64,000 nt of DNA from Candidatus Paceibacter sp. (GCA_013360865.1 JABWAS010000002.1:30159-94158); one strand, 5' to 3'. Counted from the stretch's first letter, positions 4,080 to 34,248 are shown. Made by a program: numbers and translations. The notes: a model not told the origin generated them from the sequence alone.

Positions 4080-4397
4080 TTATTTTATTACTTCGCAAGT
4101 AAAAGCGCAAACTTGAGTACATGTCTGGGCATTAAGGTCGCAAGTGTTGCCGCACATATTGAATCTTCCTTTCCTCAAGCGGCAATCGTTTTCAAACCTG
4201 GCAGTCGCCTGATTGGTATTGGTAGTATAGACGACTTTCAGGTAGCTTAATTTACCCCGGTATTTGGCCATTACTGGAACCCTGTCCGGTTCCTTAAAAA
4301 AAACAAACGGATTTTCGCTTTCGCCGAAAACGAACCACACGTAAACGATAGCGAAGATTATGGCTATAAAAACAAACAAAACTTGTTTCGGTCCCAT
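4080..4397 (-). CDS. small membrane-anchored Cys-rich protein
   Basis: 105 aa. It has an N-terminal TM helix and six Cys in the C-terminal 40 aa. The start codon abuts repeat family 1. Confidence 0.35.
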   Translation of the reverse strand: MGPKQVLFVFIAIIFAIVYVWFVFGESENPFVFFKEPDRVPVMAKYRGKLSYLKVVYTTNTNQATARFENDCRLRKGRFNMCGNTCDLNAQTCTQVCAFTCEVIK

Positions 4398-4531
4398 CCC
4401 GGTTAGTACAAATTATGATTGCCTATGTTTTTGGTTAAATGATAACCCAACAATTAAACAACCAGCTTACTTTTTAATATTAATGACTTTTATATACCCG
4501 GCAAAAACCATCATAATTTGTCCTACCGGGC
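4398..4531. repeat. MITE-like inverted-repeat element, family 1, copy 1
   Basis: Left end cccggttagtacaaattatgattgc and right end atcataatttgtcctaccggg form about 22-bp imperfect terminal inverted repeats. The same ends recur at 14231..14362. Confidence 0.6.
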
Positions 4532-4560
4532 ATGATTAAATTATAATCTTTCTCCTCTCT

Positions 4561-4602
4561 AAAACAAGAACAGTTCCGCTTTAGCGGAACTGTTCTTGTT
4601 TT
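4561..4602 (-). terminator. Rho-independent terminator hairpin downstream of the S8 protease gene
   Basis: Perfect 19-bp inverted repeat aaaacaagaacagttccgc-ttta-gcggaactgttcttgtttt with T/A runs on both sides, so it is bidirectional in form. Confidence 0.6.
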
Positions 4603-4617
4603 AATCTACAAACATTA

Positions 4618-5811
4618 TTACCAGTTGACGGCGTTGTAAGCGTTGACCATTACGCCCAGGTCGGAGGCGGTATCTTCCAGTTTCTGGTAAACTTCCGCCG
4701 GATCCCAGGCGCCGTTGCCGTTGAAGTCGTAAAAACCGACCGGAGAATTAAGCAACAAAGCCGCCGCGCCGGCCACGTGAGGAGCGGCCATTGAAGTGCC
4801 GGACATCGTAGCGTACCAGGAGCCTTTGTAAGTGGAGAAAATACTCACCCCCGGAGCTACTAAATCAACTTCCGGCCCGCGGCTGGAAAAAGAAGCGATG
4901 TTGTTGCCATAATCGGTGGCGCCCACGGCCAGAACTTCCGGATAAGCTCCCGGATAATCCACCGCCGCGCCGTCGTTGCCCGCCGCAGCCGTTATCACTA
5001 TTCCGGAGTTGTAAGCGGCTATGACCGCGTCGCGCAAAGAAGCGATATCGTAGTTGGAACCGAGGCTCATGTTTATAACGTCCATGTCGTTGGCAATAGC
5101 CCATTGTATACCCTCTATGACGTCAGAAACGTAACCGGAACCTCTTCTATTGAGAACTTTGACCGCGTAGAGGTCGGCGGCCGGAGCGGCGCCGATAACT
5201 CCAATGGAGTTGTCCACCGCGGCAACAATACCCGCCACGTGAGAACCGTGCCCGTTGTCGTCATTATAGCTCCTGCTCGGATCAATGGCGTTGTATCCGC
5301 CCTTGATGTTGCCGAACAAGTCCTGATGAGAAGTGGAAATACCGGTATCTATAACGGCGACTTTTATCGGATCGGCGGTATTGCCGGTCGGCCAGATCAA
5401 ATCGGCCTGTATTCTGCCAACTCCCCAAGGCAACCCTTCGGAAGGCTGACTTCCGCCCCTTACCTTTAAATTTTCAGTAACAGCCAGTGTCTGGACAACG
5501 ACGTCGTCTTCAACTCTTTTGACTCCTTCTTCTTTACTTAAAGCGGACGCCGATTCCTCATCGTCAACCGCAACGGCCAAGCCGTTAACCAGGTCTAATT
5601 TTTTGGTCCTGGCGTTTTTGTGCTTAATTTTGATGGTCTGCTCCGTTTTCTCCAAATCAACGCCCGGCTCCAAAACGACTATTTTGCGGACTTCTTTTTT
5701 TTGCGCGTCATTGTCGCCATCGTTATCTTTGGCGTAAGCGGCTGGAAACGCTCCGTTTGCCAAAAAAAGGCTTAAAACAACACTTAAAGCTATGATATTT
5801 TTGTTTTTCAT
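4618..5811 (-). CDS. subtilisin-like serine protease (S8), secreted
   Basis: Asp/His/Ser catalytic motifs are present: VAVIDTGI, HGSHVAGI and GTSMAAPHVAG. The signal peptide starts at MKNKNIIAL, and the start was set to that ATG at 5811 rather than the track ORF start at 5892. Confidence 0.85.
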   Translation of the reverse strand: MKNKNIIALSVVLSLFLANGAFPAAYAKDNDGDNDAQKKEVRKIVVLEPGVDLEKTEQTIKIKHKNARTKKLDLVNGLAVAVDDEESASALSKEEGVKRVEDDVVVQTLAVTENLKVRGGSQPSEGLPWGVGRIQADLIWPTGNTADPIKVAVIDTGISTSHQDLFGNIKGGYNAIDPSRSYNDDNGHGSHVAGIVAAVDNSIGVIGAAPAADLYAVKVLNRRGSGYVSDVIEGIQWAIANDMDVINMSLGSNYDIASLRDAVIAAYNSGIVITAAAGNDGAAVDYPGAYPEVLAVGATDYGNNIASFSSRGPEVDLVAPGVSIFSTYKGSWYATMSGTSMAAPHVAGAAALLLNSPVGFYDFNGNGAWDPAEVYQKLEDTASDLGVMVNAYNAVNW

Positions 5812-5915
5812 AGTTGGATTTATAAAAAATAAACCGTTATTCCGACTAAACTTAATTATACCACCGTAAAAAGAAAAACACCAGTCAATCAAGACTGGTG
5901 TTTTTATAGGACTTT

Positions 5916-6410
5916 TTAGAGCTTGTAGTCAACCGGTTCGGAAGCGTCGTCTCTTATCTTGAACTTTACCACCACGGTGTTACCGTTCTTGTCTTTGGCC
6001 GGCTGGTCGTCGGCGGTGTTATAAACCCCGTCGCCGTTGTCCCAATGGAGCATGGCGTACATATTTTCCCCGGCAACGCTTCTTCGGCTTAAAGTAACAG
6101 ACGTGTCCCGGCTGGTTCCAACGTTAAGCAAGCTGCTGTTGCCAATGGTGGATCCCGGACCTCCTGCTTGCTCCTCATGTATGGCTATAAATCCCTTCTT
6201 GCTCAACTTCGCCTCCCTAACGTTGACGAACCGTCCCGGCTTCTGATCCATCATTGTTAGGGAATCTTCCATCATCTGTTCTTCTCCTCCGTTTTCAACC
6301 TCCGGAGCGGGCGCTCGCCTACCCGCAAAAAGCCAAACTATAACACCGATAACCGCCAGCGCGATGATAATTCCTATTATCATCGGCGCGCTTGATTTTT
6401 TCTCGTCCAT
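5916..6410 (-). CDS. hypothetical membrane-anchored protein
   Basis: 164 aa with a single N-terminal TM helix (IIGIIIALAVIGVIVWLF). No recognisable catalytic motif. Confidence 0.4.
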   Translation of the reverse strand: MDEKKSSAPMIIGIIIALAVIGVIVWLFAGRRAPAPEVENGGEEQMMEDSLTMMDQKPGRFVNVREAKLSKKGFIAIHEEQAGGPGSTIGNSSLLNVGTSRDTSVTLSRRSVAGENMYAMLHWDNGDGVYNTADDQPAKDKNGNTVVVKFKIRDDASEPVDYKL

Positions 6411-6512
6411 AAATTTAAAAAAATAATTAAGCTAATAATAAGATAATTCAATTATACTTCCCGCTCTCCCAAAGGCAAGGGCGGGGAAAATCAAGTTTTG
6501 CACAGGCTATTT

Positions 6513-7508
6513 TCAATAATTGGAGCCGAAGCGCACGTTTTTGTTGATATAATCAAGAATTTCCATCACGTCTTCTTCGCGGGATTCGCTTTTCAGCAGC
6601 GTAATGCCTATGTTCCTGCCTCCGCCGAACGATACCGGCATATAAAAGGCCGCGGCGATTGTTTCTCTGGCTTGGCTGGTGTGGCCGGTTTTGCCGCCCA
6701 GATAATTTCTCATGTCGGCGATTAAATTTTTATTAAGCCAAGCGTTAGAGTCGGAAGAATATCCCTCCTGACGGGTGATGTCCAAAATTTCTTTTTTGTA
6801 TTTATAAATGTAGGAGAGAAATTCAAACACTTCCTGGGCGCTGGACACGTTGGCCGGGGAAACGCCGCTCGGGTCGGCAAACGAAGTTTTGCGCAAGCCA
6901 AGTTCAGCCGCCTTTTTGTTCATCATTTTGATGAATTTTCCCCGCCCGTAGTCGCTGGCAATAGTCTCCGCCGCCGCGTTGCTGGATTCCAGAAGCAGCG
7001 GATAAATCAGGTCCCCTGTTTTTATCAGCTGGCCGGCTTTGAGGCCGCCCACCTTGTAATAAGGAATGCTGGAAATGGCCATCGGCACCGCCGCCACCCC
7101 TGTTTGATCCATTTCTTCCAAAGAAACAAGGGCGGTCATAAGCTTGTTTTTCTCCAAGATGATCGCGCCGGAATCCAGGTCGGCCACCAGATAAGCTTTG
7201 GCGGAAAGTTGCGGTTTGGGCATATTCTTGTCTATGGCGTAATAATTGTCTGGGCCGGAATCGCCGGAAATCCCTTTCCCGCCGTCGTTTAAGGCATAAA
7301 AAATTTTGGGCGCGCCCGCGGCGGCGGAAACCTTCAGGGGGAAATTTTGGGCCTCGTAAACCAGCGGCTCAAACATTCGCGAAAATGATTCGTAAGCGTA
7401 ACGGACGCCCTTTGTGGCGGAGTAAAACAAAAACACGCCGGAAAAAACGGCCACCCCCGTCCAAAAAAGATAAGAAATGATTCCGTGTCTTTTGCCGTAA
7501 TGCGCCAT
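6513..7508 (-). CDS. S11-type PBP / D-Ala-D-Ala carboxypeptidase homologue lacking the SxxK serine segment (possible pseudoenzyme)
   Basis: SxN (LLESSNAAA) and KTG (GGKTGHT) motifs are present. Next to the canonical paralogue at 15350..16378, the segment EKNAYDQLPIASVTKLMTAM is reduced here to EKNKLMTAL. Confidence 0.6.
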   Translation of the reverse strand: MAHYGKRHGIISYLFWTGVAVFSGVFLFYSATKGVRYAYESFSRMFEPLVYEAQNFPLKVSAAAGAPKIFYALNDGGKGISGDSGPDNYYAIDKNMPKPQLSAKAYLVADLDSGAIILEKNKLMTALVSLEEMDQTGVAAVPMAISSIPYYKVGGLKAGQLIKTGDLIYPLLLESSNAAAETIASDYGRGKFIKMMNKKAAELGLRKTSFADPSGVSPANVSSAQEVFEFLSYIYKYKKEILDITRQEGYSSDSNAWLNKNLIADMRNYLGGKTGHTSQARETIAAAFYMPVSFGGGRNIGITLLKSESREEDVMEILDYINKNVRFGSNY

Positions 7509-7527
7509 TTTTATTTTTCTTTAAAAA

Positions 7528-7659
7528 TTTTACCCCCACACCTGCTTAGGTGTTGCGAAGCATATTTTTGTACTTTATCCCCGTGTAATTTTACTTTAAA
7601 TGTTAATTATCTCAGGACATCCAGGAGCAAAAAACATCTAAACAGGGTGGGGGTTTACT
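7528..7659. repeat. MITE-like inverted-repeat element, family 2, copy A
   Basis: ttttacccccacacctgcttaggtgttgcgaagc ... aaacagggtgggggtttac. The ends are inverted repeats and match the copy at 34249..34343. Confidence 0.55.
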
Positions 7660-8113
7660 TGCTTTCGTAATCGCTTTCCGCCACCGAAGCCCGCCGCAAA
7701 ATAGTCCCGTCTTTATCCGTGCGGTAAACGTATTTTTTGCCCCCGACGGTCATAATAACCTCAAATCCCGGAGTAATAACCTGGGCGCAAAACTCATCCA
7801 CCGCCGCCACACCCAAACAGGAATCGGGCCAATCCTGGTCTTTTACCTCAAGAATCAGGATGTCTTTTTCGTCAACGGATAAAAAGTCCGCCAGATTTTT
7901 GCGCGCGACTTTGGCTGCCGGCTCAATCGGCAGGTCATGAACCAGACTGCCGGAAGAAACGCTGTCTCCGGAAGTGGCCGGGGTTTGCGTCTGTTCCTCT
8001 TTTCGCGGCTCTTCTTTTTTGTTTTGTTTAAACAAGATGGCTCCGCCGGTTATCGCGGCAAGCGCCACTAACGCTATAATTATTTTAAGCATAAGATAAT
8101 TATACCACCACAC
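7655..8113 (-). CDS. hypothetical membrane-anchored protein
   Basis: 152 aa with an N-terminal TM helix. The stop codon lies inside the right arm of the family-2 repeat. Confidence 0.4.
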   Translation of the reverse strand: MWWYNYLMLKIIIALVALAAITGGAILFKQNKKEEPRKEEQTQTPATSGDSVSSGSLVHDLPIEPAAKVARKNLADFLSVDEKDILILEVKDQDWPDSCLGVAAVDEFCAQVITPGFEVIMTVGGKKYVYRTDKDGTILRRASVAESDYESK

Positions 8114-8118
8114 CGCTG

Positions 8119-8985
8119 TTAGTAAAACAACTCCACAAACTTCACCGGGTCCACGGATACGCCGTTTATTTTAACGCTTAAATGCAGGTGCGGAAACTCG
8201 GCATAGCCGGTCCGGCCGCTTAGCCCGAGCAGTTGCCCTCTTTGGACCAGTTCGCCCTCATTAACCTTGATTTCAGAAAGGTGCATGTAAAGAGTCATCA
8301 GGCCGAGCCCGTGGTCAACCACCACGGTTTTGCCGTAATTGCGGTATTCCCGGGCGGCGCGGACGACGCCGCGGTTCATGGCCATAACCGGCGTGCCTTC
8401 TTGGGCGCGAAAGTCCGTCCCCTTGTGAGCGATGGTATAGGCGCCGGTTTTGCGGGAATAGCCGTAATCGTCGGTGATAATGTTTTCTTGCAACGGGAAA
8501 CGAAACGACCCCGTCCAGAAAGATTTTTTACCGGTGCGCATTTCGGCCAGATTTTTATTTTCCAGCGCCAGCGTCGCCGCCAGTTTGTTCTGGCTTTGGA
8601 CAGTGTTGCCTCCCAGCTTTTGCGGGATTCCCAAAGGCGCTTCAACTTTTTTCCGTTCGGCAATCGCGACTTTTTTTCTTAAAACAAACCCATCGGAAAA
8701 CTCGGCAGCAATCTCGTACTCGCCGGGCTTTTTGTTCAAATCCAGGCCGACCAAAGCGGCCGGTTTGCTTTTGTAATAAAAAACGGGAAAAGCCTCCCCG
8801 CCAAAACTTATTTTTTTGACGGAATTATTTTCCAGCCGCCCTTTTACCGTTATCATCAACGGCTCGCCCTGTTTGACCGCTTCCGGCAGGAAAACAAGCT
8901 CCGGTTCGGCCAAGCTGCTCGCCGGAAAAACAAGAAACGCCGGCACGGAAAAAGAAACGGCCAATATTGATAAAATTAACCTCAT
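8119..8985 (-). CDS. M23 family metallopeptidase (LytM-like)
   Basis: HKGTDFRAQEGTPV, VVVDHGLGLMTLYMHLS and PHLHLSV motifs (HxxxD ... HxH). Signal peptide present. Confidence 0.8.
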   Translation of the reverse strand: MRLILSILAVSFSVPAFLVFPASSLAEPELVFLPEAVKQGEPLMITVKGRLENNSVKKISFGGEAFPVFYYKSKPAALVGLDLNKKPGEYEIAAEFSDGFVLRKKVAIAERKKVEAPLGIPQKLGGNTVQSQNKLAATLALENKNLAEMRTGKKSFWTGSFRFPLQENIITDDYGYSRKTGAYTIAHKGTDFRAQEGTPVMAMNRGVVRAAREYRNYGKTVVVDHGLGLMTLYMHLSEIKVNEGELVQRGQLLGLSGRTGYAEFPHLHLSVKINGVSVDPVKFVELFY

Positions 8986-9006
8986 TTACCAATATTATAA
9001 CTTTTT

Positions 9007-9432
9007 TTACCTTATGCCGGTGTCAATGGAAAAATCAAATTCTTTCGTTTCTCCTTCAGCGAGCGTGAAAGCGTAAGGCAGGTCTTTGCTGGCGTAGCCG
9101 ATGCCCTTGCGCGCCGTGTCCAAAATATAAGAGCCCGGTTTAAGATTAAACAAATATGTCCCGTCCGTGTTTATAGCGGAGCGCTTCACCTCCGTTTTGC
9201 CGTCGGATTTATAGACGACAATTTCCCGCGAAGTGTAAGCTTCCGGCGGCACGGAACACGGCTCGCCTTCCTTTTCCACCGGGCAAATCGGCCCGATGGA
9301 AACTTTGCCTTTAATGGCGGCAGTCTCGCCGCCGCCATTTTCAACGGTTGAATTTTGTTTGGAAACATAAGCAAAAATCCCGTAAACAGCGGCCGCTATG
9401 GCGATAATTGAAATTAAAATTTTTGTTTTCAT
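9007..9432 (-). CDS. hypothetical secreted protein
   Basis: 141 aa with an N-terminal signal/anchor and a beta-rich C-terminal part. Confidence 0.4.
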   Translation of the reverse strand: MKTKILISIIAIAAAVYGIFAYVSKQNSTVENGGGETAAIKGKVSIGPICPVEKEGEPCSVPPEAYTSREIVVYKSDGKTEVKRSAINTDGTYLFNLKPGSYILDTARKGIGYASKDLPYAFTLAEGETKEFDFSIDTGIR

Positions 9433-9552
9433 GGTTTTATTATACCACCAACTCTTTTATTTTTGCAAAGTAGGGTTTAAAATAAAAACAGTGCAGTAAA
9501 CCCGCTACGGGGTTCGTAGAAACAAGAAAGTTCTTTTTACAAAGGAGAAAGA

Positions 9553-9960
9553 ATGGAAAGCGCTCGGGTGATTCACATAAACCGCGGAAGAGGTTATGGT
9601 TTTGCCAAAGTTGTAGTATTTAAAAGCCGTGAAATAACAATTGATAAGTATGAGGAAATAATCTTCCACTTTGGCGGTGGATACAAGATGAGGCCTGGAA
9701 GAAGAAAACCGAGATTTAATTATAAAATTAGAATCAAAAAATTTCCTGTGCCTGGAGAATACATAGTCTTTGTCAGGAAAAAGATAGAAAATGGAAATCT
9801 TAGGGATAAGGCCGCCGTATGGGGGCTTAGAAAGCAATACAAGGAGGTATGGAAGTTTTTAGACAGAAGAAATAAGCAGGAAAAGAAACTGCTGAAAATA
9901 GACCAGTTATTCCGAAAAATAGAAACAGAAAGAAGCTCAGAAACAAGAAAAGCGCTTTAA
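9553..9960 (+). CDS. hypothetical highly basic protein
   Basis: 135 aa, Lys/Arg-rich. A strong SD (aaaggag) lies 6 nt upstream of the ATG. Confidence 0.45.
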   Translation: MESARVIHINRGRGYGFAKVVVFKSREITIDKYEEIIFHFGGGYKMRPGRRKPRFNYKIRIKKFPVPGEYIVFVRKKIENGNLRDKAAVWGLRKQYKEVWKFLDRRNKQEKKLLKIDQLFRKIETERSSETRKAL

Positions 9961-9992
9961 TTCACTTTCATAAATTTTTTAAGGAGAATGTT

Positions 9993-10085
9993 ATGGCTAG
10001 AAATGTTCCGCCGCCTCGCTTCACAAGGCGGGTTACATTAAAAAACATCCTTAGAAACAAAATATCATCAGCCAGGAAGAAGTAA
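9993..10085 (+). CDS. candidate small basic protein (30 aa)
   Basis: aaggag SD 6 nt upstream of the ATG. It encodes MARNVPPPRFTRRVTLKNILRNKISSARKK and is followed by a terminator hairpin. The ORF is too short to appear in the ORF track. Confidence 0.25.
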   Translation: MARNVPPPRFTRRVTLKNILRNKISSARKK

Positions 10086-10100
10086 TTTTCCTGGCGCAAT

Positions 10101-10146
10101 GCCCTCCTCCCTGCAATCCCTCTTGCTTGGAGGAGGCTTTTTTCTC
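10101..10146 (+). terminator. Rho-independent terminator
   Basis: cctcctcc ... ggaggagg stem followed by cttttttctc. Confidence 0.5.
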
Positions 10147-10196
10147 ATCGAAGCTCATCGAAGTCCGGTGTCGATGAGCCTCGATGAGATGAGCTT

Positions 10197-10589
10197 CTAA
10201 AAAGTCTCTTCAACAAAAGTCACCAGGAGTTCTCTTTCCCGCGGGCCGTCCAGCTCCACTAAAACAAGTTTTTGCCACTGGCCGAGCAGGAATTTGCCGC
10301 CGCTGACCGGCAAGCTGACGGACTGGCCGACGACGGAAGCCATGATGTGGTCTTTTACATGAGACGGGTCGTGCAAATGCCGGTATTGCAGCTTCGGCAC
10401 CATTTGTTCAAAAGCGTCCAGCATGTCCGAATCAGTGCCCGGATCAAGGTCGGCCACGGCCAAAGCCGCCGTGGTGTGCTTCACGAAAATATTGCACAAG
10501 CCGATGTCCACCGGCAAAATAATTTCCACTTCCTTGGTAATATCCACGATTTCTTTCTTCCTTTTGGTTTTTATTTTAAGAGTTTGCAT
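10197..10589 (-). CDS. YjbQ/UPF0047 family protein (secondary thiamine-phosphate synthase family)
   Basis: 130 aa. Family-typical segments HTTAAL and DHIMASVVGQSV...GKFLLGQWQ. Confidence 0.65.
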   Translation of the reverse strand: MQTLKIKTKRKKEIVDITKEVEIILPVDIGLCNIFVKHTTAALAVADLDPGTDSDMLDAFEQMVPKLQYRHLHDPSHVKDHIMASVVGQSVSLPVSGGKFLLGQWQKLVLVELDGPRERELLVTFVEETF

Positions 10590-10646
10590 GAGTGTATTAC
10601 CCGCTCAAAATAATCTTTCCAATTTTTTTGCGAATTATTGCCATAG

Positions 10647-11126
10647 TTATCTTACCTCATCATCCTTGATGTAGCGGACTTCGTTTGAGCTTACTCTCCC
10701 CTCTCTAAAATCATCTCCCAGTTTTGGAGGTAATATCTTTACATTATCTTCGGGACTTACCCAATAAATTCCGGAAAGCTCATGGGCATGAGAACGGACT
10801 ATTTTGTCGCTATCGATATAATCTTTTCCGTTTAACACCTCAAAGAAAAATTCTAATGGTTGAATATTTTCCGAACTGACAAAAGTGTTTACATATAATA
10901 ATCTTCCGATAACGGGCTTAACGCCAAGTTCCTCTGTTATTTCCCTGCTAAGGCAACTCTTAACATCTTCTCCCCATTCCAAATGGCCGCCAGGCAAGGC
11001 GACATAACCTGAATCAGATGAATGTCGCACTAAAAGCAATTTCCCATCATGGAAGATTATTGCTCTGCACCGTATTACAAATTTTTTAGTATTGTCCGCG
11101 TTCATTTTTCTATCTAACTTGGACAT
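10647..11126 (-). CDS. NUDIX hydrolase
   Basis: Nudix box GGHLEWGEDVKSCLSREITEELGV. The track ORF starts at a TTG at 11177; the ATG at 11126 (MSKLDRK...) is more plausible and avoids overlap with the upstream gene. Confidence 0.65.
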   Translation of the reverse strand: MSKLDRKMNADNTKKFVIRCRAIIFHDGKLLLVRHSSDSGYVALPGGHLEWGEDVKSCLSREITEELGVKPVIGRLLYVNTFVSSENIQPLEFFFEVLNGKDYIDSDKIVRSHAHELSGIYWVSPEDNVKILPPKLGDDFREGRVSSNEVRYIKDDEVR

Positions 11127-11146
11127 CGGATGTCCAAGTGGTTTAT

Positions 11147-11797
11147 TCAGTTTTGTTGACCAACCAAGTTTTTCCAAAGGTTAATCATATTCCTATCCTT
11201 TGCCCAATACTCCAGAATATTATCCCGAAGCTCTTTGTGTTGCGGATAGCCGCCATCAACGATTCCCTCAGGCATCAGGTCCTTGCACTCAATATTAAGC
11301 AAAACTGTAATAGCCTCTTTTAGATCATTATACTTCTGTTTACCAATCTTTTCTTCCCAATCGGCCCCGAAAGCATGCCAAGTATAGAAATGCCACAATT
11401 CATGCATGGATGTTTTTCTGGCGGAAAGCGACTGCGCGGAAACGTAAAAGAAATTATTTTCAATACTGTACGGACAGCGGCTATTTATAGTAAGGTAGGC
11501 CACAATATCGCCAGGAAGAGAAACTCCGAAAATAGTTTCTGCTCTTTTTTGGTATTCACCTGAAATACTATCCCAATCTTTTTGAAATTTTTCCACGCAT
11601 TCGCCAATATTAATTTTATTATCCTTAAGATATTTTCCTATAAAATCGTCCGTCATTTCAGGATTAGGATACTCTCCGTGCATGGCTACAAGTTGCTCAT
11701 ATTGTTTTGTCGGGATTTGAGAATTGCTTGAACTTTTCCCTCTGCTCAACAAGCACCAGATGTCCTTTTCTTTATTGTATGTAAAACTGACTTTCAT
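11147..11797 (-). CDS. hypothetical protein with HExxH-like motif
   Basis: 216 aa with MHELWHFYTWH; possible zinc-dependent hydrolase. Confidence 0.4.
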   Translation of the reverse strand: MKVSFTYNKEKDIWCLLSRGKSSSNSQIPTKQYEQLVAMHGEYPNPEMTDDFIGKYLKDNKINIGECVEKFQKDWDSISGEYQKRAETIFGVSLPGDIVAYLTINSRCPYSIENNFFYVSAQSLSARKTSMHELWHFYTWHAFGADWEEKIGKQKYNDLKEAITVLLNIECKDLMPEGIVDGGYPQHKELRDNILEYWAKDRNMINLWKNLVGQQN

Positions 11798-11840
11798 TCT
11801 ATATATACTAATGACAAATCATGATCTTGGCGAAGGATGA

Positions 11841-11911
11841 CTGCCGGACTTGGATTCGAACCAAGATTAGCGGATTCAGAGTCCGCGGGCCTACCATTAG
11901 CCGATCCGGCA
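11841..11911 (-). tRNA. tRNA-Gln (CTG anticodon)
   Basis: The reverse complement gives a 7-bp acceptor TGCCGGA/TCCGGCA, a T-arm CTTGG-TTCGAAT-CCAAG and an anticodon stem GCGGA/TCCGC with loop CTCTGAA. CCA is not encoded. Confidence 0.75.
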
Positions 11912-11973
11912 ATGTTTACTTTCCTCAAATAATCTAGCAATAAAAACGCCAAAAATCCAGCTCGCCAAAAATT

Positions 11974-12003
11974 AAAGGGGAGTTAATTAACTCCCCTTTT
12001 TGT
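11974..12003. terminator. bidirectional Rho-independent terminator
   Basis: Perfect palindrome aaggggagtt-aatt-aactcccctt flanked by A-run and T-run. It sits just downstream of the minus-strand gene 12025..12456. Confidence 0.6.
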
Positions 12004-12024
12004 TTAGACGCTAGCAAAATATTA

Positions 12025-12456
12025 TTATGTGCTCCGGGCAAGGCGCGAGTTGATAAGTTTATTGTAAAAACTTCTGATTCTTTTTTCTATCAACTCTTTT
12101 TTACTCTTGTCGGCAATTACGGTTTTTATATATTTGTTAAGTTTATAAAAACCGAATATCTCCGCTTTGCCGCCCTCCATAAAACAATAAATTGACATTG
12201 GGTTTATGTCTTCGTGATGCTCGACGCTTATGTGACAGTTTATATCTGCATCACAGCTTATAACTGAAACGATTATTTTAACTCCGCCGTTGATATTATC
12301 GGATGGAATATCCGCGATATAACTGTCTCTAATCTTCTTATTATCATCAGAACGCCACTTAAATTGACCATTTTCCAGAAAACCAATCAGGTCAAGAAAG
12401 AAATTAAACCAATCATCTTTTTCCGCTTTCTCGTCAAAAATTGCAAAAAAATCCAT
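12025..12456 (-). CDS. hypothetical protein
   Basis: 143 aa with no recognisable motif. Confidence 0.4.
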   Translation of the reverse strand: MDFFAIFDEKAEKDDWFNFFLDLIGFLENGQFKWRSDDNKKIRDSYIADIPSDNINGGVKIIVSVISCDADINCHISVEHHEDINPMSIYCFMEGGKAEIFGFYKLNKYIKTVIADKSKKELIEKRIRSFYNKLINSRLARST

Positions 12457-12589
12457 AACTATTCCCTCCGGTATTTGTTTTGGTTCAAAAATAAAAATAC
12501 TGTCAGCTTAACCCAAAACTAACAGATTAAAACCCAGAAGCAAAGGCATGGCCTTTACTATAAGCCATACGCCGTTTGCCATTTGCTAT

Positions 12590-13519
12590 CTATATCTTCA
12601 AATACCTCCTGATGGCGATGAGGCTGGAGAGGGCGCAGGTGAGGATGCCGATGCCCAGAAGCAGAATAAATATCTGGCCGAAGTTGGCGATGTAATATTC
12701 GCGCAGGCTGACGCCGGAGAAAAAGTTGACGATTTTCGGGTCAAGCCAAAGCGCGAACGGATAAAACAAAATCATGGCGATGATAGCCGAGAAAAATCCG
12801 TACATCATCCCCTCCACCACAAACGGCCCGCTGGCGAAGCGGTTGCTGGCGCCGACCAACTTCATAACCTCCACTTCTTCGCGCGATGAATAAATGGCCA
12901 GCCGGATGGTGTTGAAAGTTATGAGCATGGAGATAAAAACCAGAATAAGGCTGACGGCCAGGCCGATGTTTTTGGCCGAGTCCATTATCGTAATCAGCCG
13001 GTCTATGACTTTCTTGTTTTGGTAGTAGTTCACTTTGTCTATGGAAGAATCGCCCAACGGCCCGCTTTTGCCCTCCAGAAACTTCGCCACCGAGCCGTAT
13101 TGGGAAACTTCTTTGGTTTTGATGTTGAGCGCCGCTCCGAGCGGATTGCCGTCCAACTCATCCAGCGACTGCATTATGGTGGCGTTGTCTTTATGCCTTG
13201 TTTTGAATTCCTCCAGCGCCTGCGCGGCGGAAATGTATTCCACGCTTTTCACCTCGTCCAGTTTGGAAACGGCGTCTTTGACGGCCGTTATTTCCGCTTC
13301 GTCAGCGTCCGTTTTGAAGTAAACAGTTATGTCAACCTTATCCTGAACGTGGGCCAGCATTGAGCCCATTATTGCCCGGGAAAAAACGATGGAGCCGATA
13401 GTAAAAAGAGTTATCACAACGATAAGTATGGCGGCCAAAGAAACCCAGCCGTTGCGCCAGAAGTTTATAAACCCGCCCTTTATCACCCTTTTTGCTTTAG
13501 TAATGATCATTTTCCCCAA
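12590..13519 (-). CDS. ftsX: cell division permease FtsX
   Basis: 309 aa with one N-terminal TM, a periplasmic domain and three C-terminal TMs. It lies immediately downstream of ftsE. Confidence 0.8.
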   Translation of the reverse strand: MGKMIITKAKRVIKGGFINFWRNGWVSLAAILIVVITLFTIGSIVFSRAIMGSMLAHVQDKVDITVYFKTDADEAEITAVKDAVSKLDEVKSVEYISAAQALEEFKTRHKDNATIMQSLDELDGNPLGAALNIKTKEVSQYGSVAKFLEGKSGPLGDSSIDKVNYYQNKKVIDRLITIMDSAKNIGLAVSLILVFISMLITFNTIRLAIYSSREEVEVMKLVGASNRFASGPFVVEGMMYGFFSAIIAMILFYPFALWLDPKIVNFFSGVSLREYYIANFGQIFILLLGIGILTCALSSLIAIRRYLKI

Positions 13520-13549
13520 GATTTTAGATTTTATTTTTTAGATTTTAGA

Positions 13550-14230
13550 TTACACATGGTATTTCCCCTTCTTATCATCCCTTATCACCTTTCCCTTTTC
13601 AAGCGTTATGACCCTTTTCCCCAGCGAATCTATAATGGACTTGTTGTGCGTCGCCAGCAACACGGTAGTGCCAAGTTTGTTTATCTTCTCCAGAATACTT
13701 ACAACCTCCGCGGCGTTGCGCGGGTCAAGGTTGCCCGTCGGCTCGTCGGCAATTATAACATCGGGGCGATTGACGATGGCCCGGGCGATGGCCACGCGCT
13801 GACACTCCCCGCCGGAAAGCTCGTTGGGAAACCGCGAGGCTTTGTCCACCAGATCCACCAACTCCAGCACGTATGGCACGCTGTCTTCTATTTCCGCCGG
13901 AGTCTTGCCGGCCGCCTCCATGGCGAAAGCCGCGTTTTCGTAAACGGTTTTATTGGAAAGCAGGCGGAAGTCCTGGAAAACCGTGCCGATTTTTCTCCGC
14001 AGCAAAGGCATCTTTTTCCGAGACAGAGAATGAACATTGACCGACTCAAAATACACCGTTCCGGAAGACGGGCATTCCTCGGCCAGAAGCAGTTTCAATA
14101 AAGTGGTCTTGCCAGCGCCGGACTGGCCGACCAAAGAAGCAAACTCACCCTGCTCCACCGATAAACTCACCTCGTCTAAAGCGACGGAGTTGGGTGAATA
14201 AATTTTGGAAACTTTATCAAAAAAAATCAT
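13550..14230 (-). CDS. ftsE: cell division ATP-binding protein FtsE
   Basis: Walker A GQSGAGKTT, ABC signature LSGGECQR and Walker B IIADEPT. 226 aa. Confidence 0.85.
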   Translation of the reverse strand: MIFFDKVSKIYSPNSVALDEVSLSVEQGEFASLVGQSGAGKTTLLKLLLAEECPSSGTVYFESVNVHSLSRKKMPLLRRKIGTVFQDFRLLSNKTVYENAAFAMEAAGKTPAEIEDSVPYVLELVDLVDKASRFPNELSGGECQRVAIARAIVNRPDVIIADEPTGNLDPRNAAEVVSILEKINKLGTTVLLATHNKSIIDSLGKRVITLEKGKVIRDDKKGKYHV

Positions 14231-14362
14231 CCCGGTTAGTACAAATTATGATTGCTTATAAATTTGGTTACATTACGCACACCCTTTATCTAACCCGCAG
14301 TGAGCAAATTATGATTAAGCTTTATTTTCGCGAAAAATTTAATCATAATTTGTCCTACCGGG
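14231..14362. repeat. MITE-like inverted-repeat element, family 1, copy 2
   Basis: It begins cccggttagtacaaattatgattgc immediately after the ftsE ATG and ends atcataatttgtcctaccggg immediately before the prfB stop. It fills the whole intergenic gap. Confidence 0.6.
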
Positions 14363-15238
14363 TCATATACCCTTCTCCGCTTCTATAAATTCATCCAGCT
14401 CCCCTTCCAGCACCGCGTCCACGTTACCCGTCTCGACATTCGTCCGGTGGTCCTTCACCATCTTATACGGATGCACAACATAAGACCGTATCTGATGCCC
14501 CCACTCGGCTTCCACCGTCTTGTTTATCCGTAAAGCGTTTTTCTCTTTCTCCTGTTCTTTTATCATTATACTATACAACTTGGCTTTGAGAATCTGCATT
14601 GCCCGTTCTTTGTTTTGCGCCTGCGACCTTTCAGCGTCCGCGTGGATGGCGACGTTGGTGGGCAAGTGGACTATTCTCACGGCCGTTTCTCTTTTGTTCA
14701 CGTTTTGGCCGCCCGCTCCGCCTGATCTCATTAAATCAACCCTGATATCCTTCTCGTCTATCCTTACTTCTTCCGGCGCCACGAATTTGGGCACCACCTC
14801 CAGCAAGGCAAAGGAAGTGTGGCGCAACTTTTTGGCGGAAAAGGGCGAAACGCGGACAAGCCGGTGCACGCCCGCTTCTTTTTTAAGCGTTCCGTAGGCT
14901 GATTTGCCGTCAATTTCAAAAGTGATGTTTTTATACCCTCCGTGCTCGCTTTTGTGCTCATGCAAGACAAAAACTTCCCAGCTTTTTTTCCGGGCGAACT
15001 TCAGATACATTTCAAAAAGCATTCTCACCCAGTCTTCCGCGTCGTCGCCGCCCGCTCCGGCAAACAAGGTCAAAACCGCGTCGCCCTTGTCGTACTTGCC
15101 GACACCGGCCGCTTTTTCTTTAAGTTCGTTAAGTTCTTTCACCGCTTCCTGCGCTTTTATCTTATCCTGCCAAAAATCGGGTTTTTGCATTTCCGCTTCC
15201 AGCACGGCTATTTTATTCTTAATTTCTTCTTTTTCCAT
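14363..15238 (-). CDS. prfB: peptide chain release factor 2
   Basis: SPF tripeptide (VRVSPFSAKK), GGQ motif (SGGAGGQNVNK) and AGAGGDDAEDW. 291 aa, without the extreme N-terminal segment. Confidence 0.8.
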   Translation of the reverse strand: MEKEEIKNKIAVLEAEMQKPDFWQDKIKAQEAVKELNELKEKAAGVGKYDKGDAVLTLFAGAGGDDAEDWVRMLFEMYLKFARKKSWEVFVLHEHKSEHGGYKNITFEIDGKSAYGTLKKEAGVHRLVRVSPFSAKKLRHTSFALLEVVPKFVAPEEVRIDEKDIRVDLMRSGGAGGQNVNKRETAVRIVHLPTNVAIHADAERSQAQNKERAMQILKAKLYSIMIKEQEKEKNALRINKTVEAEWGHQIRSYVVHPYKMVKDHRTNVETGNVDAVLEGELDEFIEAEKGI

Positions 15239-15278
15239 CCGTTAAATTATATCTTTTTAAGATAATTGGGCAACGCTT

Positions 15279-15324
15279 AAACTTGGAAGCCAAACTTCCA
15301 ATTGGAAGTTTGGCTTCCAAGTTT
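15279..15324. promoter_or_regulatory. 46-bp perfect palindrome in the prfB / PBP divergent intergenic region
   Basis: aaacttggaagccaaacttccaa|ttggaagtttggcttccaagttt. The two 23-bp arms are exact reverse complements with no spacer. Each arm also holds a ggaag...cttcc sub-hairpin. Confidence 0.5.
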
Positions 15325-15349
15325 TGACATCGGATGTCGGTTTTGATTT

Positions 15350-16378
15350 TTGTCCATCGGTTGTTGTTGTGCTAGCATAAAAACAATGGAAACACCGGAG
15401 AAAAATAGAGGAAATTTATCCTTGGAAAAAGGCATTTTCGCCTTTTTGCTGATTCTGGCCATGGCGGCGCCGGCTCTTTACTCGGTGAAAAATTTCGGGC
15501 AAAAACTCTCGGCGGCTTCGCTTTTAGCCAAAACAAACAAACAGGAAACATCAAATTCATGGCTGCCAGTTAAAAAAGAAAACGCCGGCGCGCCGGAATT
15601 GTCCTCTTTGTCTTATCTTTCCGCTTTCATAGGCAACGTCGGAGAAGTAAAAATATTGGCGGAAAAAAACGCCTACGACCAACTGCCCATAGCCAGCGTC
15701 ACCAAGCTGATGACGGCCATGGTCGCCGCGGATTCTCTTGATATGGAGCAAATAATAACCATGGACAGCAGAAATATTTTGAAAGAAGAGGGCTCCAAAA
15801 GATTTAACGCCGGAACGAAATTCAAAGCCAAAGAACTGCTTCACGCCATGCTGGTAGAATCCAACAACGACGCGGCGGCGGCTTTCATGGAAGAAGTCGG
15901 CAAAACCAAATTTATTGAACAGATGAACCTGAAAGCTAAACAATTAAACTTATTATCAACGTATTTTAACAACCCCGTTGGACTTGATCCAAAAGACATC
16001 CGCGACGAGCTTAACTACTCCACCGCGGCCGACCTCTTGGCGATAGCAAAAGAGGTAAAAGAAAATTACCCGCAAATTTTGGAGATTACTTCCCTGCCGG
16101 AATACAATGTCCACAACAGCGACGGCTGGTTCAATCACGTAGCCGTAAGCACCGACAAACTGCTTGCTTCCAACGAGCTGGCTTGCGACGGCGCGCCGCT
16201 GAAAATTTTGGGCGGCAAAACCGGCTCCACTGATTTAGCAAAAAAGAATCTGGTTTTAATTACGGGATCGCCAAATCCCGAAGGTTATCTCATAAACATC
16301 GTCTTAAGTTCGGACGATAATTTTGAAGACACCAAGAAACTGGCGCGGTGGATGTGCGAATCTTATCAATGGCGGTAA
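15350..16378 (+). CDS. S11-type penicillin-binding protein (D-alanyl-D-alanine carboxypeptidase)
   Basis: Canonical SxxK (PIASVTK), SxN (VESNNDAAA) and KTG (GGKTGST) motifs. The real start may be the METPEKN ATG at 15386. Confidence 0.75.
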   Translation: MSIGCCCASIKTMETPEKNRGNLSLEKGIFAFLLILAMAAPALYSVKNFGQKLSAASLLAKTNKQETSNSWLPVKKENAGAPELSSLSYLSAFIGNVGEVKILAEKNAYDQLPIASVTKLMTAMVAADSLDMEQIITMDSRNILKEEGSKRFNAGTKFKAKELLHAMLVESNNDAAAAFMEEVGKTKFIEQMNLKAKQLNLLSTYFNNPVGLDPKDIRDELNYSTAADLLAIAKEVKENYPQILEITSLPEYNVHNSDGWFNHVAVSTDKLLASNELACDGAPLKILGGKTGSTDLAKKNLVLITGSPNPEGYLINIVLSSDDNFEDTKKLARWMCESYQWR

Positions 16379-20073: not shown

Positions 20074-20448
20074 TTAACCTCTTTTTGTCAGGAATTTATC
20101 CAAGGCAATAAGCTTAAAATACTCCTCTTGAATTAACTTATCTAATTTATCATAAATTTCTTTACTTATATATTTTTGCTCCAATGATATATCAATACAG
20201 GCCATAGTTTCCATGAGTGACCCTAAGGCAATTCTCACGAATGAAGCAAAATCTTTACTGGTCCTTTTGGCGCTTCCTTCAGCAATATTAAGAGGAACTG
20301 AAATTGCGGCTCTCCTAATTTGAGAAACCAGGCAAAATTTTTCATCATTTGGAAAATTTTTAGTTATTGAGTATATTTCTTTGACAATACTCATTCCCAA
20401 TTTCCAAACATCCAATTTATAGAATCCATATTCAACTTTTTTCTGCAT
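20074..20448 (-). CDS. four-helix-bundle protein (23S rRNA intervening-sequence protein family)
   Basis: 124 aa. Family-typical segments CLVSQIRRAAISVPLNIAEGS and ALGSLMET. Confidence 0.65.
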   Translation of the reverse strand: MQKKVEYGFYKLDVWKLGMSIVKEIYSITKNFPNDEKFCLVSQIRRAAISVPLNIAEGSAKRTSKDFASFVRIALGSLMETMACIDISLEQKYISKEIYDKLDKLIQEEYFKLIALDKFLTKRG

Positions 20449-29012: not shown

Positions 29013-29125
29013 CCTCTGAACCGGCGGCTAGCTACTTTCCCCCAAAAGAGTATCATCGCCGCTACCACGTTTCACTTCCGTGTTCGGAATGGGAACGGGT
29101 GGTTCCGTGGCGCCAAGCCACCGAA
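29013..29125 (-). rRNA. rrf: 5S ribosomal RNA
   Basis: The reverse complement contains the conserved ccgaacacggaagtgaaac and gcgatgatact...gggaaagtag 5S segments. Confidence 0.8.
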
Positions 29126-29373: not shown

Positions 29374-29394
29374 CTTTACAGGTTTCCTAATAGG

Positions 29395-32928
<3,534 letters not shown>

Positions 32929-34122: not shown

Positions 34123-34248
34123 AATATTTTAAATTAAATAAACTTATGCTTATAAATGATGGCGCCTAAGCGACTGACACCATCGTTAAATCACTATGGC
34201 AATATTATACAACAAAAACCGGTTTTGGTTTTTGCAAGCTGTGAATAA

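Follow-up and report, generated by a model that had tools for sequence, protein, structure and literature searches.

A probable low-copy, MITE-like repeat family sited on start codons in Paceibacteria

Two repeat copies and the genes they precede

The window, the whole 64,000-nucleotide stretch of Candidatus Paceibacter sp. DNA that was analyzed (GCA_013360865.1), holds two copies of a short repeat, each lying immediately upstream of a minus-strand gene. Copy 1 separates a subtilase gene (assigned by Pfam) from the gene of a 105-aa protein without a Pfam hit, and copy 2 separates prfB from ftsE. The features are as follows:

4395..4397, minus strand: ATG of the gene for the 105-aa predicted membrane protein (4080-4397), flush with copy 1
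4398..4530, minus strand: copy 1, 133 bp (nhmmer E=2e-31)
4398..4422, minus strand: gene-proximal inverted end of copy 1, 22 nt plus a conserved GCA, sense strand GCAATCATAATTTGTACTAACCGGG, invariant columns in the nine-copy alignment
4510..4530, minus strand: distal inverted end of copy 1, 21 nt, sense strand CCCGGTAGGACAAATTATGAT
4531..4533, minus strand: second ATG, directly 5' of copy 1, read as the start codon in use before the insertion and hence as the remaining half of the duplication
4540..4545, minus strand: TATAAT box, 6 nt before the ATG that precedes copy 1, a leaderless-type promoter geometry
4561..4602, minus strand: terminator-like hairpin belonging to the subtilase gene, which bounds the copy 1 promoter region on its upstream side (read directly in the sequence and unflagged by a simple terminator scan)
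13550..14230, minus strand: ftsE, downstream of copy 2, 100% identical to NCBI "FtsE [Candidatus Paceibacter sp.]"
14227..14230, minus strand: ATGA on the 3' side of copy 2, the ftsE start codon and the next base, one half of the duplication
14231..14362, minus strand: copy 2, 132 bp, in the prfB-ftsE gap (nhmmer E=3e-30)
14231..14252, minus strand: gene-proximal inverted end of copy 2, 22 nt
14304..14315, minus strand: internal third end-core motif of copy 2, sense strand ATCATAATTTGC
14342..14362, minus strand: distal inverted end of copy 2, 21 nt
14363..14366, minus strand: ATGA on the 5' side of copy 2, holding the prfB stop TGA (14365-14363) as well as the second of the duplicated ATGs
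14363..15238, minus strand: prfB (release factor 2), upstream of copy 2, with PCRF and RF-1 domains

As an earlier note on this DNA had described, copy 1 begins just after the CAT at 4395-4397 and copy 2 just after the CAT at 14228-14230, the ftsE ATG. The coordinates given there stand for copy 2, whereas copy 1 ends at 4530 and not at 4531, since base 4531 belongs to a flanking CAT. Running from the ftsE ATG to the base before the prfB stop, copy 2 exactly fills the prfB-ftsE gap, again as had been claimed. Each copy is also directly adjoined at its distal, 5' end by a second ATG, overlooked in that note (4533-4531 and 14366-14364).

The element measures 132-136 bp over the sites found, and has no coding capacity, all six frames having stops or non-conserved short ORFs. 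Its inverted ends are 22 nt long on the gene-proximal side (CCCGGTTAGTACAAATTATGAT) and 21 nt on the distal side (CCCGGTAGGACAAATTATGAT), and differ from each other by one indel and one G/T position; the shared 22-bp terminal repeats proposed earlier are therefore upheld in kind, with a distal end that is one nucleotide shorter. The diverged interiors are also as described, copies 1 and 2 being 51-60% identical there against a shuffled level of 52 +/- 3%. The 20-mer GGTTAGTACAAATTATGATT occurs exactly at 4401 and 14234, and on the opposite strand at 14341-14360 with 3 mismatches, with 0 matches in 100 dinucleotide-preserving shuffles, and the 12-mer core ACAAATTATGAT occurs 7 times at ≤1 mismatch where 0.54 are expected. 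The third internal motif ascribed to copy 2 is indeed present (14304-14315), and weaker internal end-core motifs are found at sites L121 and L130, of the same subfamily as copy 2.

No further copies, diverged ones included, were found by nhmmer in the window or in the ~20 kb beyond its ends. Copy 1 is identical in every contig examined (several samples and a second assembly), and copy 2 in the six contigs that other samples yielded; neither copy is missing from any contig examined, and insertion polymorphism within the population was not seen. Several assembly contigs begin exactly at the inverted-repeat edge, the signature of a multi-copy sequence.

Dispersal, empty sites and target duplication

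Pattern scans located seven more sites on other Patescibacteria contigs, bringing the total to at least nine. The additional sites precede rpsL (two), rpmF, nusG, argS, scpA and ftsE, so that with the window copies seven different genes are involved: the small membrane protein, ftsE twice, rpsL twice, rpmF, nusG, argS and scpA. The hosts (the window genome, contigs of at least two further MAGs, and unbinned metagenome contigs) are tiny groundwater-type bacteria of the Paceibacteria/Patescibacteria. Over the nine sites the ends are near-identical, with 1 substitution in 387 nt, a figure biased toward conserved ends by scans that demanded one perfect end, while the interiors are 51-80% identical and near-random. 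Copies at the same gene in two genomes (ftsE, rpsL) fall in one interior subfamily.

At 9/9 sites the orientation relative to the gene is the same, the 3' end of the element lies on the gene's ATG (with one extra T between them at two sites), and an ATG stands at the 5' end too; the orientation of the interior and the asymmetry of both ends are likewise constant, across the nine sites as across all contigs examined. Start codons make up 27% of the ATG/CAT trinucleotides outside coding sequence in the window, and a start-codon location in 7/7 distinct genes has p ~1e-4.

The flanking duplication is ATG at five sites, ATGA at two and TATG at two, and in each of the last four the extra duplicated base (A at copy 2 and L121, T at L125 and L130) agrees with the flank on the other side. 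The count of copies and the search for target-site duplications proposed in the earlier note thus give at least nine sites and a duplication that always includes ATG. Relatives that lack the element between prfB and ftsE have an FtsE 74-80% identical to that of the window. Their empty site (L139/L140) reads ...AAATTT[ATGA]TTTATTTC, where the stop of prfB and the start of ftsE overlap within one ATGA; the filled site in the window reads ...GGTAT[ATGA]-element-[ATGA]TTTTTT. At rpsL, the empty site L142 has one ATG and the same promoter as the filled L125/L145 (TTGACC-17-TGcTAATCT), and the filled site reads gt[TATG]-element-[TATG]tca. Among the nearest relatives of L121, the second filled ftsE site, L158 is empty and L159 carries a different palindrome; judged from these sequences, the insertion at L121 is apparently a lineage-specific gain.

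Because relatives have empty sites and the ATG is doubled around the element, it has been inserted, and is a non-autonomous, MITE-like element with a 3-4 bp target duplication. Set beside prokaryotic MITEs in general (about 50-800 bp, inverted ends of at least 10-15 bp, duplications of 2-10 bp), it is likewise short and non-coding, has terminal inverted repeats and a flanking duplication (of a length that varies between 3 and 4 bp), and is dispersed with presence and absence among related genomes. The MITE-like character and the position flush with start codons suggested for the two window copies hold across the nine dispersed sites.

A cognate transposase or autonomous element was not detected in the 40 window ORFs scanned with Pfam (about two thirds of the called genes), nor an autonomous partner at the other loci (ORF lists read by eye) or in plasmid and phage collections, and exact-end scans gave miniature copies only, among the matches listed. 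Rfam 15 gave no match at gathering thresholds and, in E-value mode (E≤5), weak matches only, scoring well under their gathering cutoffs. The literature that could be searched yielded no such repeat. Integron attC sites were considered and rejected: the ends depart from the R-box consensus (RYYYAAC / GTTRRRY, read by eye), no integrase lies among the tested ORFs, and the copies stand 10 kb apart before housekeeping genes, not in a cassette array beside intI.

RNA folding, host translation signals and interpretation

Folding of the RNA, also proposed earlier, gives a terminal stem in every copy (MFE -34 to -40 kcal/mol, z-scores -3.1 to -5.4). In copy 1 the ends (4510-4530 with 4398-4419) pair into a stem of 21 pairs, which includes an A.A mismatch, a G.U pair and one bulged A. 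Covariation in the stem was not seen across the nine copies, and since the ends are invariant and the interiors near-random, these data demonstrate neither an RNA-structure constraint nor transposase binding. The stem starts at -1 of the gene's AUG, and by itself would be expected to hinder initiation.

Shine-Dalgarno sites play almost no part in this host, where many genes have a leaderless appearance: motifs resembling a Shine-Dalgarno site precede 3/57 window genes (background 8.3%), and a TATAAT-like box lies 5-9 nt upstream of the start in 13/57, against 2.9% of control ATGs. Such a box also lies at 6 nt from the 5' ATG of copy 1, L039 and L127, as read by eye from the flanks and not scored by script. 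The element supplies no Shine-Dalgarno site, and a consensus promoter was not found on the sense strand of either window copy; the earlier idea that it may supply the translation-initiation region of the downstream gene has to be put differently, the start codon being restored by the duplicated target ATG. The upstream ORF that opens at the 5' ATG varies in length, from 3 to >30 codons.

We believe that the copies probably belong to a low-copy family of non-autonomous, MITE-like DNA transposons of the Paceibacteria/Patescibacteria, in which insertion on start codons may be combined with bridging by a hairpin. Filled and empty sites show that the element inserts at (Y)ATG and doubles 3-4 bp that always include the ATG. 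A gene hit on its start codon thereby retains a complete ATG flush with the 3' side of the element, and the earlier ATG is left on the 5' side. Because the host is nearly without Shine-Dalgarno sites and the geometry is leaderless, such an insertion would turn leaderless or ATGA-coupled starts into AUG-hairpin-AUG leaders, with a predicted transcript, from the geometry, of 5'-AUG-[21-bp-stem hairpin, ~90-nt loop]-AUG-ORF. The inverted ends would pair as RNA and loop out the insert, juxtaposing the original entry point (the 5'-terminal AUG, or a ribosome terminating on prfB) with the duplicated AUG, and a ribosome on the 5' arm would melt the stem and free the gene's AUG. We infer this part of the hairpin in gene expression; if only sense-oriented insertions exactly on start codons are viable, the siting at 9/9 sites would be explained. 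For the invariant ends we favor binding by a putative trans-acting transposase, with host-level selection on the hairpin as the alternative.

Two observations bear on the type of enzyme. The duplication length is not fixed (3-4 bp), which is unusual for a single DDE transposase, and a plain DDE transposase leaves the fixed orientation and the exclusive start-codon location unexplained, so that a selection or targeting step is needed.

It is possible, though in our view unlikely, that the element spread by transposition and that the host has retained the surviving copies because they work as a structured 5' leader, perhaps a switch coupled to the upstream ORF or processed by RNase III, or a site for an RNA- or DNA-binding protein, that controls housekeeping genes. 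The invariant ends and the 5' AUG would then be under host selection, consistent with ends that stay constant around interiors 51-80% identical even between copies of one metagenome, with a 5' ATG and an orientation kept at 9/9 sites, and with the presence of copies 1 and 2 in every contig examined. The G.U pair of the stem works only in the sense RNA, and an alternative 5' hairpin (AUGCCCGG/CCGGGCAU) has wobble-compatible changes in 6/9 copies and 79% of its cells paired, against 30-47% in slid controls, although its shuffle control is not significant (244/500). Correia elements, which are cleaved or protected by RNase III with altered expression (PMC2649163, PMC10969869), offer a precedent. 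Against such a leader, however, are the lack of covariation, the unconserved length of the upstream ORF, genes that form no obvious regulon, and close relatives in which the same genes are expressed without the element; the invariance of the ends must also be read with the ascertainment in mind.

Quite unlikely, we think, is a mobile 5'-leader module for leaderless genes, targeted to the +1 ATG and crossed by a ribosome shunt at the stem base. Integration would be aimed, for instance, at the ATG exposed in an open promoter complex, or at ATGA stop/start overlaps, and a ribosome coming from the 5'-terminal AUG or from termination on the upstream gene would cross the base of the 21-bp stem to an identical AUG, over 133 nt. 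Such a module, if real, would explain why the ends are invariant, why the 5' AUG is conserved, why the orientation is fixed and why ftsE and rpsL were each hit more than once.

The uniform orientation, with ATG always the left flank and always the right end, would also suit a single-strand HUH/Y1 miniature of the IS200/IS605 type, which would insert 3' of a target ATG without duplication, its own terminal ATG serving as the motif for cleavage at the right end; a single orientation would follow from strand-specific insertion, with a preference for single-stranded ATGs, such as the +1 ATG in an open promoter complex. In three or more cases the target is the +1 ATG of a leaderless-type promoter, and a related Paceibacteria contig carries an IS200-type Y1 transposase fragment (L159 1081-1389). 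The right-end hairpin beside that fragment is, however, unrelated to the element, the ATGA that copy 2 and L121 occupy is internal to an operon and not at a promoter, and the long terminal inverted repeats pair end to end, unlike the separate subterminal hairpins of IS200/IS605. The extra base matching the opposite flank at four sites fits a 4-bp duplication and would otherwise be a coincidence of ~1/64-1/256. We therefore consider this origin distinctly improbable.

Non-mobile, vertically inherited gene-specific leaders or riboswitch-like RNAs would explain why ftsE and rpsL each carry the element in two genomes, with same-gene copies sharing an interior subfamily. Such leaders are highly improbable, since seven unrelated genes carry the element, the element is absent from relatives closer by FtsE (74-80%) but present in one further away (70%), whose own nearest relatives are empty or hold a different insert, and there is neither a conserved interior nor an Rfam match. 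The earlier note had itself named conserved gene-specific leaders in only two copies as the contrary case, and the nine sites, seven genes and empty sites speak otherwise. Hardly credible is an inverton, in which an invertase acting on the inverted repeats would flip the interior and switch the downstream gene on or off: global invertase systems do use the same inverted repeats at many loci upstream of genes, as do the ~21-bp repeats around ~90 bp here, but the interior points the same way throughout the nine sites and the contigs examined, the sense strand of both window copies gave no consensus promoter, the genes concerned are essential housekeeping ones, and the empty sites and ATG duplication indicate insertion, not inversion.

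Comparison with known systems

Miniatures derived from IS200/IS605 (PATEs) have a short specific left-flank target, strict orientation and no coding capacity, all of which recur here; identity with PATEs was rejected because these have neither terminal inverted repeats nor a duplication, whereas the present element has 21/22-nt repeats and, at four sites, a 4-bp duplication. Hairpin-bridged starts are known from the split ribosome-binding sites of T4 genes 38 and 25, the T4 gene 60 bypass and the CaMV 35S shunt, all of which loop out RNA, and in gene 60 take-off and landing occur on identical codons. The two AUGs around our element resemble those identical codons as a functional analogy only: the T4 and CaMV cases are not mobile repeats, and split-site logic is not directly applicable in a host that does not use Shine-Dalgarno sites.

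Closest in general build are the Correia elements (CREE/NEMIS) of Neisseria, which are likewise non-coding (~100-155 bp), with terminal inverted repeats (~26 bp) around a variable core, dispersed beside genes and with no cognate transposase identified. They are co-transcribed, and their inverted repeats make a long RNA hairpin that is cleaved or bound by RNase III, changing expression (PMC2649163, PMC10969869). Correia elements differ, however, in their TA duplication, their hundreds of copies at varied gene distances and in both orientations, and their IHF site and promoter boxes, whereas the present family has an ATG duplication, is low-copy (2 in ~84 kb), and lies exactly on start codons in a single orientation. 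Identity with Correia was rejected, the two families having no sequence similarity and unrelated ends, with no WATCAANNNNTTR match seen in the ends and no IHF-type site (both read by eye).

ERIC/IRU, together with RUP, BOX and YPAL, are MITE-like repeats of enterobacteria or pneumococci, imperfect palindromes of ~100-130 bp transcribed from intergenic positions with orientation-dependent effects on mRNA (PMC10969869, PMC2229807, PMC3184786). Unlike the present family, they have TA or unidentified targets and are not tied to start codons; in their Shine-Dalgarno hosts the repeats accordingly lie in 5' or 3' UTRs and not at the first codon. Rickettsia palindromic elements (RPEs) are small palindromic mobile repeats tolerated where genes survive, in streamlined genomes where intergenic space is scarce (PMC10969869). 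Their insertions are in frame within ORFs and add a translated peptide segment, whereas the present family stands outside the ORF, at codon 1, with the start codon restored by target duplication.

The two elements and their family

The window carries two inverted-repeat elements of 132-133 bp, both with the minus strand as their sense strand, which were read directly from the window sequence together with their flanks:

4398-4530, minus: copy 1
4397-4395, minus: ATG of the gene downstream of copy 1, abutting the element and encoding a 105-aa predicted membrane protein
4533-4531, minus (sense): ATG directly 5' of copy 1
14231-14362, minus: copy 2
14304-14315: third internal motif of copy 2
14230-14228, minus: ATG of ftsE, downstream of copy 2 and abutting it
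14366-14364, minus (sense): ATG directly 5' of copy 2, overlapping the prfB TGA as ATGA

The earlier note had described two copies, and both are confirmed, with one correction: position 4531, given there as the end of copy 1, belongs to a flanking CAT, the true end being 4530. Its description of shared ends around diverged interiors, of elements flush with the ATG of the small-protein gene and of ftsE, and of a third internal motif in copy 2 holds throughout, the two interiors being 51-60% identical, near the shuffled level of 52 ± 3%. The feature it missed is the 5' flanking ATG of both copies. On the sense strand, every copy follows the plan CCCGGTAGGACAAATTATGAT, about 90 variable nt, GCAATCATAATTTGTACTAACCGGG, and copy 2 stops one base short of the prfB stop. 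A 20-mer from the element end occurs three times in the window and in none of 100 shuffles, and the 12-mer core, at no more than one mismatch, occurs seven times against 0.54 expected. The FtsE encoded in the window matches an NCBI FtsE of "Candidatus Paceibacter sp." at 100% identity.

A first scan of species-representative genomes with a 16-mer pattern gave mostly chance matches among the matches listed; the only real ones among these are two Patescibacteria contigs (L015 and L039) with both ends, about 107 nt apart, while a match in Sedimenticola (L012) is compatible with chance. A metagenome scan with a 20-base pattern covering either end gave 11 stretches, nine of them real; L122 and L123, which have neither flanks nor a partner end, were judged to be chance, of which a few are expected by our own rough estimate. 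Viral contigs scanned with the end pattern gave no match. After removal of duplicates nine sites remain, copies 1 and 2 included, and the contigs fetched for comparison contribute the following:

L015: element before rpsL
L039: element before rpmF
L121: element before ftsE
L125: element before rpsL
L127: element before argS
L129: element before scpA
L130: element before nusG

The downstream genes were confirmed by Pfam, with profile matches that start at or near residue 1. The copy count and the search for target-site duplications that had been proposed earlier, carried out here by pattern scans, yield nine sites with ATG flanks at all of them: the orientation of the element relative to the gene is identical in 9/9, the gene's ATG borders its 3' end in 9/9 (across a single additional T at L125 and L130), and an ATG stands at its 5' end in 9/9 (across a single additional A at copy 2 and L121). 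Since the flanks were absent from the search patterns, this rule is not an artefact of ascertainment. When the nine copies were made into an nhmmer profile, it recovered no diverged members from the window, from about 20 kb outside its ends or from 38 kb of relatives. The family is therefore low-copy, with 2 per ~84 kb here; the pattern scans are exact-match, and decayed copies elsewhere escape them. Many short-read contigs (L134, L137, L147, L148 and L150-L155) begin at or inside the element, L150 at its first base exactly and several where the 3' inverted end begins, 26-27 nt before the gene's ATG, so the repeat fragments metagenome assemblies precisely at gene starts.

The window also holds a second repeat pair, unrelated to the element, of 46 nt and 78% identity (AAAAATTTTACCCCCACACCTG...): one copy (7523-7568) lies just upstream of a gene starting at 7508, the other (34244-34289) about 120 nt upstream of a gene starting at 34122. 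Perfect or near-perfect palindromes at 15279-15324, 38872-38919 and 26351-26401 are likely bidirectional terminators or protein-binding sites; the first, whose arms of 23+23 nt meet without a spacer, separates the prfB region from a divergent DD-carboxypeptidase gene. The 23S rRNA match (29385-32928, minus) is 3544 nt long against a 2925-nt model, which implies about 600 nt of insertions, and contains no ORF of at least 110 aa; 5S adjoins 23S, 16S rRNA went undetected throughout the window, and a "23S rRNA-intervening sequence protein" gene (PF05635) lies about 9 kb from the 23S rRNA (further coordinates listed with these features, 29019-29125 and 20074-20448). A nucleotidyltransferase/HepT-like toxin-antitoxin pair occupies 13606-14437 of L156, a stretch of the same genome, equivalent to window ~59357-59779 and 58948-59364. 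A PemK-type toxin gene is found about 8-9 kb past the high-coordinate end of the window, and an RNase J gene just outside the window.

Insertion and duplication of the start codon

At the prfB-ftsE junction the element is absent in relatives whose FtsE is 74-80% identical to that of the window. The empty site of L139 and L140 is a classical overlap, ...AAATTT[ATGA]TTTATTTC, and the gap is 1 nt in L138 and 17 nt in L141; the filled site of the window reads ...GGTAT[ATGA]-element-[ATGA]TTTTTTTT. A second comparison comes from rpsL. In the protein database, several S12 entries are lengthened at the N terminus by an odd extension, (L)TLFFISANLIFV-M, an in-frame reading of the conserved rpsL promoter region. 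One contig with this extension (L142) has the empty site TTGACC-17-TGcTAATCT-tatttttgtc-ATGTCG, and the filled site of L125/L145, with a promoter as in L142, is ...ttattttgt[TATG]-element-[TATG]TCA. The rpsL sites of L143 and L144, whose S12 is 93% identical to that of L015, are empty as well.

The duplication is 3 bp long (ATG) at five sites and 4 bp at four (ATGA twice, TATG twice). At all four of the latter, the extra base equals the opposite flank, which argues for a staggered-cut duplication and against an ATG borne by the element.

The FtsE of L121, at 70% identity to that of the window, falls below the empty-site relatives, and its nearest proteins (85% and 83%) come from L158, in which the site is empty, and L159, in which the gap holds a different palindrome of about 85 nt. 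With the closest relatives of L121 empty or differently filled and its FtsE so distant, independent insertion or transfer is favoured at the ftsE junction, and would be more parsimonious than many precise losses. In L159 (a Paceibacteria contig, GCA_017973895.1, JAEMOI010008525.1), the imperfect palindrome of the prfB-ftsE gap lies at 2501-2585, TATGCCAAT...ATTGGCATA, with an MFE of -23.8 kcal/mol (z -1.7); about 1 kb upstream of it, a fragment of an IS200-type Y1 transposase (1081-1389) adjoins two apparent tRNA genes, judged from the sequence alone. Hairpin elements may have landed at this junction repeatedly. In the prfB ORF of the window (14363-15238, minus, 291 aa) the match to the PCRF profile starts no earlier than position 95, a 61-aa ORF (15277-15462, minus) lies just upstream of it, and prfB in relatives is annotated at 288-313 aa; this arrangement may reflect the programmed +1 frameshift usual for RF2, or else a shortened RF2.

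Fold of the element and gene starts of the host

RNA folding, also proposed in the earlier note, pairs both ends in every copy, with MFEs of -34 to -40 kcal/mol and z-scores of -3.1 to -5.4. The predicted terminal stem consists of 6 bp, an A.A mismatch, a G.U, a G-C, a bulged A, and then 12-13 bp. The ends have a single substitution in 9 x 43 nt; the scans demanded one perfect end, so the conservation of that end is biased, and the partner end, which is unbiased, is perfect in 8/9 copies. Because the ends are invariant, the nine copies show no covariation in the terminal stem and lend it no such support as an RNA pairing. In the antisense RNA the stem G.U would become a C.A mismatch, a weak fit with the fixed orientation. 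The interiors form three subfamilies (L039, L127, L129 and copy 1; L121, L130 and copy 2; L015 and L125), with identities of 63-80% inside them and near-random ones across them. An upstream ORF from the 5' AUG (MPGRTNYD...) reaches a stop after 3 to >30 codons and is conserved only over the part encoded by the element end.

A second pairing is possible in six of the nine copies, between the 5' AUGCCCGG and a CCGGGCAU-like box in the interior, and the changes there are wobble-compatible (G.U):

Element positions 1-8 with ~33-40, sense: alternative 5' hairpin, e.g. window 4533-4526 with ~4501-4494 (columns 2-9 with 34-41 in A2, the alignment of the nine copies)

Its cells are paired in 79% against 30-47% for slid controls, a difference not significant against shuffles. 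The hairpin is suggestive only; it would compete with the long terminal stem and sequester the 5' AUG.

The host genome is ~89% coding or RNA. Among 57 window ORF starts taken as genes, GGAG/GAGG/AGGA is found 5-16 nt upstream in only three, below the 8.3% at control ATGs, and host initiation thus proceeds mostly without Shine-Dalgarno pairing. A TATAAT-like box 5-9 nt upstream is found in 13/57, against 2.9% of control ATGs, and we infer that in a large share of the host's first genes promoter and ATG are spaced as in leaderless mRNAs, which would seem to be usual for the genes that head operons. The 5' ATG of the element has similar surroundings: TATAAT 6 nt upstream in copy 1, TTGCAA-17-TATAGT-6-ATG in L039, TGtTAAAAT-6-ATG in L127, and extended -10 boxes 10-11 nt upstream in L129 and L125; for copy 2 and L121 the site is a stop/start junction inside an operon. 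This geometry indicates that the element landed on the original start codon, and given it the transcript of a filled gene should read 5'-AUG-element-AUG-ORF. An element-borne promoter is not favoured: a CATAAT lies 14 nt before the ATG, with neither -35 box nor TG extension, and a consensus scan reported none on the sense strand of the two window copies.

The window has 1565 ATG/CAT trinucleotides, 57 of them start codons and 152 in unannotated DNA. Under a null of survival bias, in which only non-coding and start-codon insertions persist, 27% would fall at start codons; the distinct genes give 7/7 (p ~1e-4), two of them each struck in two lineages. This leaves two readings: gene starts are the target of integration, or no other placement and orientation is viable or useful.

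Nature of the element and comparison with known systems

The element is small and non-coding, has terminal inverted repeats, is present in some relatives and absent from others, and lies between the two copies of a 3-4 bp ATG-containing duplication. All sites found are start codons with the element in sense orientation, and the host, which hardly uses Shine-Dalgarno sites, has many leaderless-type gene starts. On this basis the element is, we believe, quite probably a MITE, moved by a trans-acting transposase, probably of the DDE type, an enzyme we infer, that would bind the invariant ends, while the target duplication would regenerate the start codon. On the mRNA, the paired ends would loop out the insert and so bring either the AUG at the transcript's 5' end or a ribosome finishing prfB at its stop next to the gene's AUG, which a ribosome over the 5' arm would expose by unzipping the stem. 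This hairpin-bridging step is tentative, and we hold it to be rather doubtful. Alternatively, an accessible start could arise by Correia-like RNase III cleavage of the 21-bp stem; such cleavage of the stem is described for Correia elements (PMC2649163, PMC10969869).

Pfam detected neither transposase nor integrase nor invertase in 40 window ORFs, and none was seen among the ORFs of the other element-bearing contigs, which look like housekeeping genes. A protein-database search with peptides encoded by the inverted ends, meant to catch a transposase or spurious ORFs, returned no match at E<=10. Rfam returned no family for the element at gathering and E-value thresholds, and blastn against plasmids and phages gave short chance matches only. 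An exapted regulatory leader overlaps with the MITE reading and would fit the invariant ends and the fixed orientation; as a separate account it is a minority view. An IS200/IS605-like single-strand element inserting 3' of the ATG would also leave an ATG before every copy, and is improbable given the extra bases matched across the 4-bp sites. Vertically inherited gene-specific leaders, to which the paired ftsE and rpsL sites might point, are very improbable beside the empty sites of close relatives, and an inverton, for all its inverted ends, even more so, with a single orientation in every contig and site. An integron attC site was rejected (R-box consensus absent, no cassette array, housekeeping neighbours), as were a self-cleaving ribozyme, a riboswitch and a tRNA-like processing signal, for lack of a conserved core in the interior.

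Text searches of the literature found no start-codon-specific MITE, no MITEs in Patescibacteria and no leaderless translation in Patescibacteria, and neither start-codon MITEs nor MITEs of Patescibacteria are mentioned in a survey of 183,232 genomes or in a review, both from 2024. Four features are thus not described in the searchable literature: a duplication that is the start codon itself, the exclusive and oriented start-codon placement, the link to leaderless-type gene starts in a candidate-phyla-radiation host, and ends that stay invariant while interiors randomise. The element offers a natural case of where a mobile element can persist in a streamlined genome, or of gene-start targeting, and a concrete route from a leaderless gene to a structured 5' leader; AUG-hairpin-AUG is a natural construct for start-codon finding behind a stable stem without use of Shine-Dalgarno pairing. 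In kind, the element belongs with the known MITE-like palindromic repeats of bacteria, such as Correia, ERIC and RPE.
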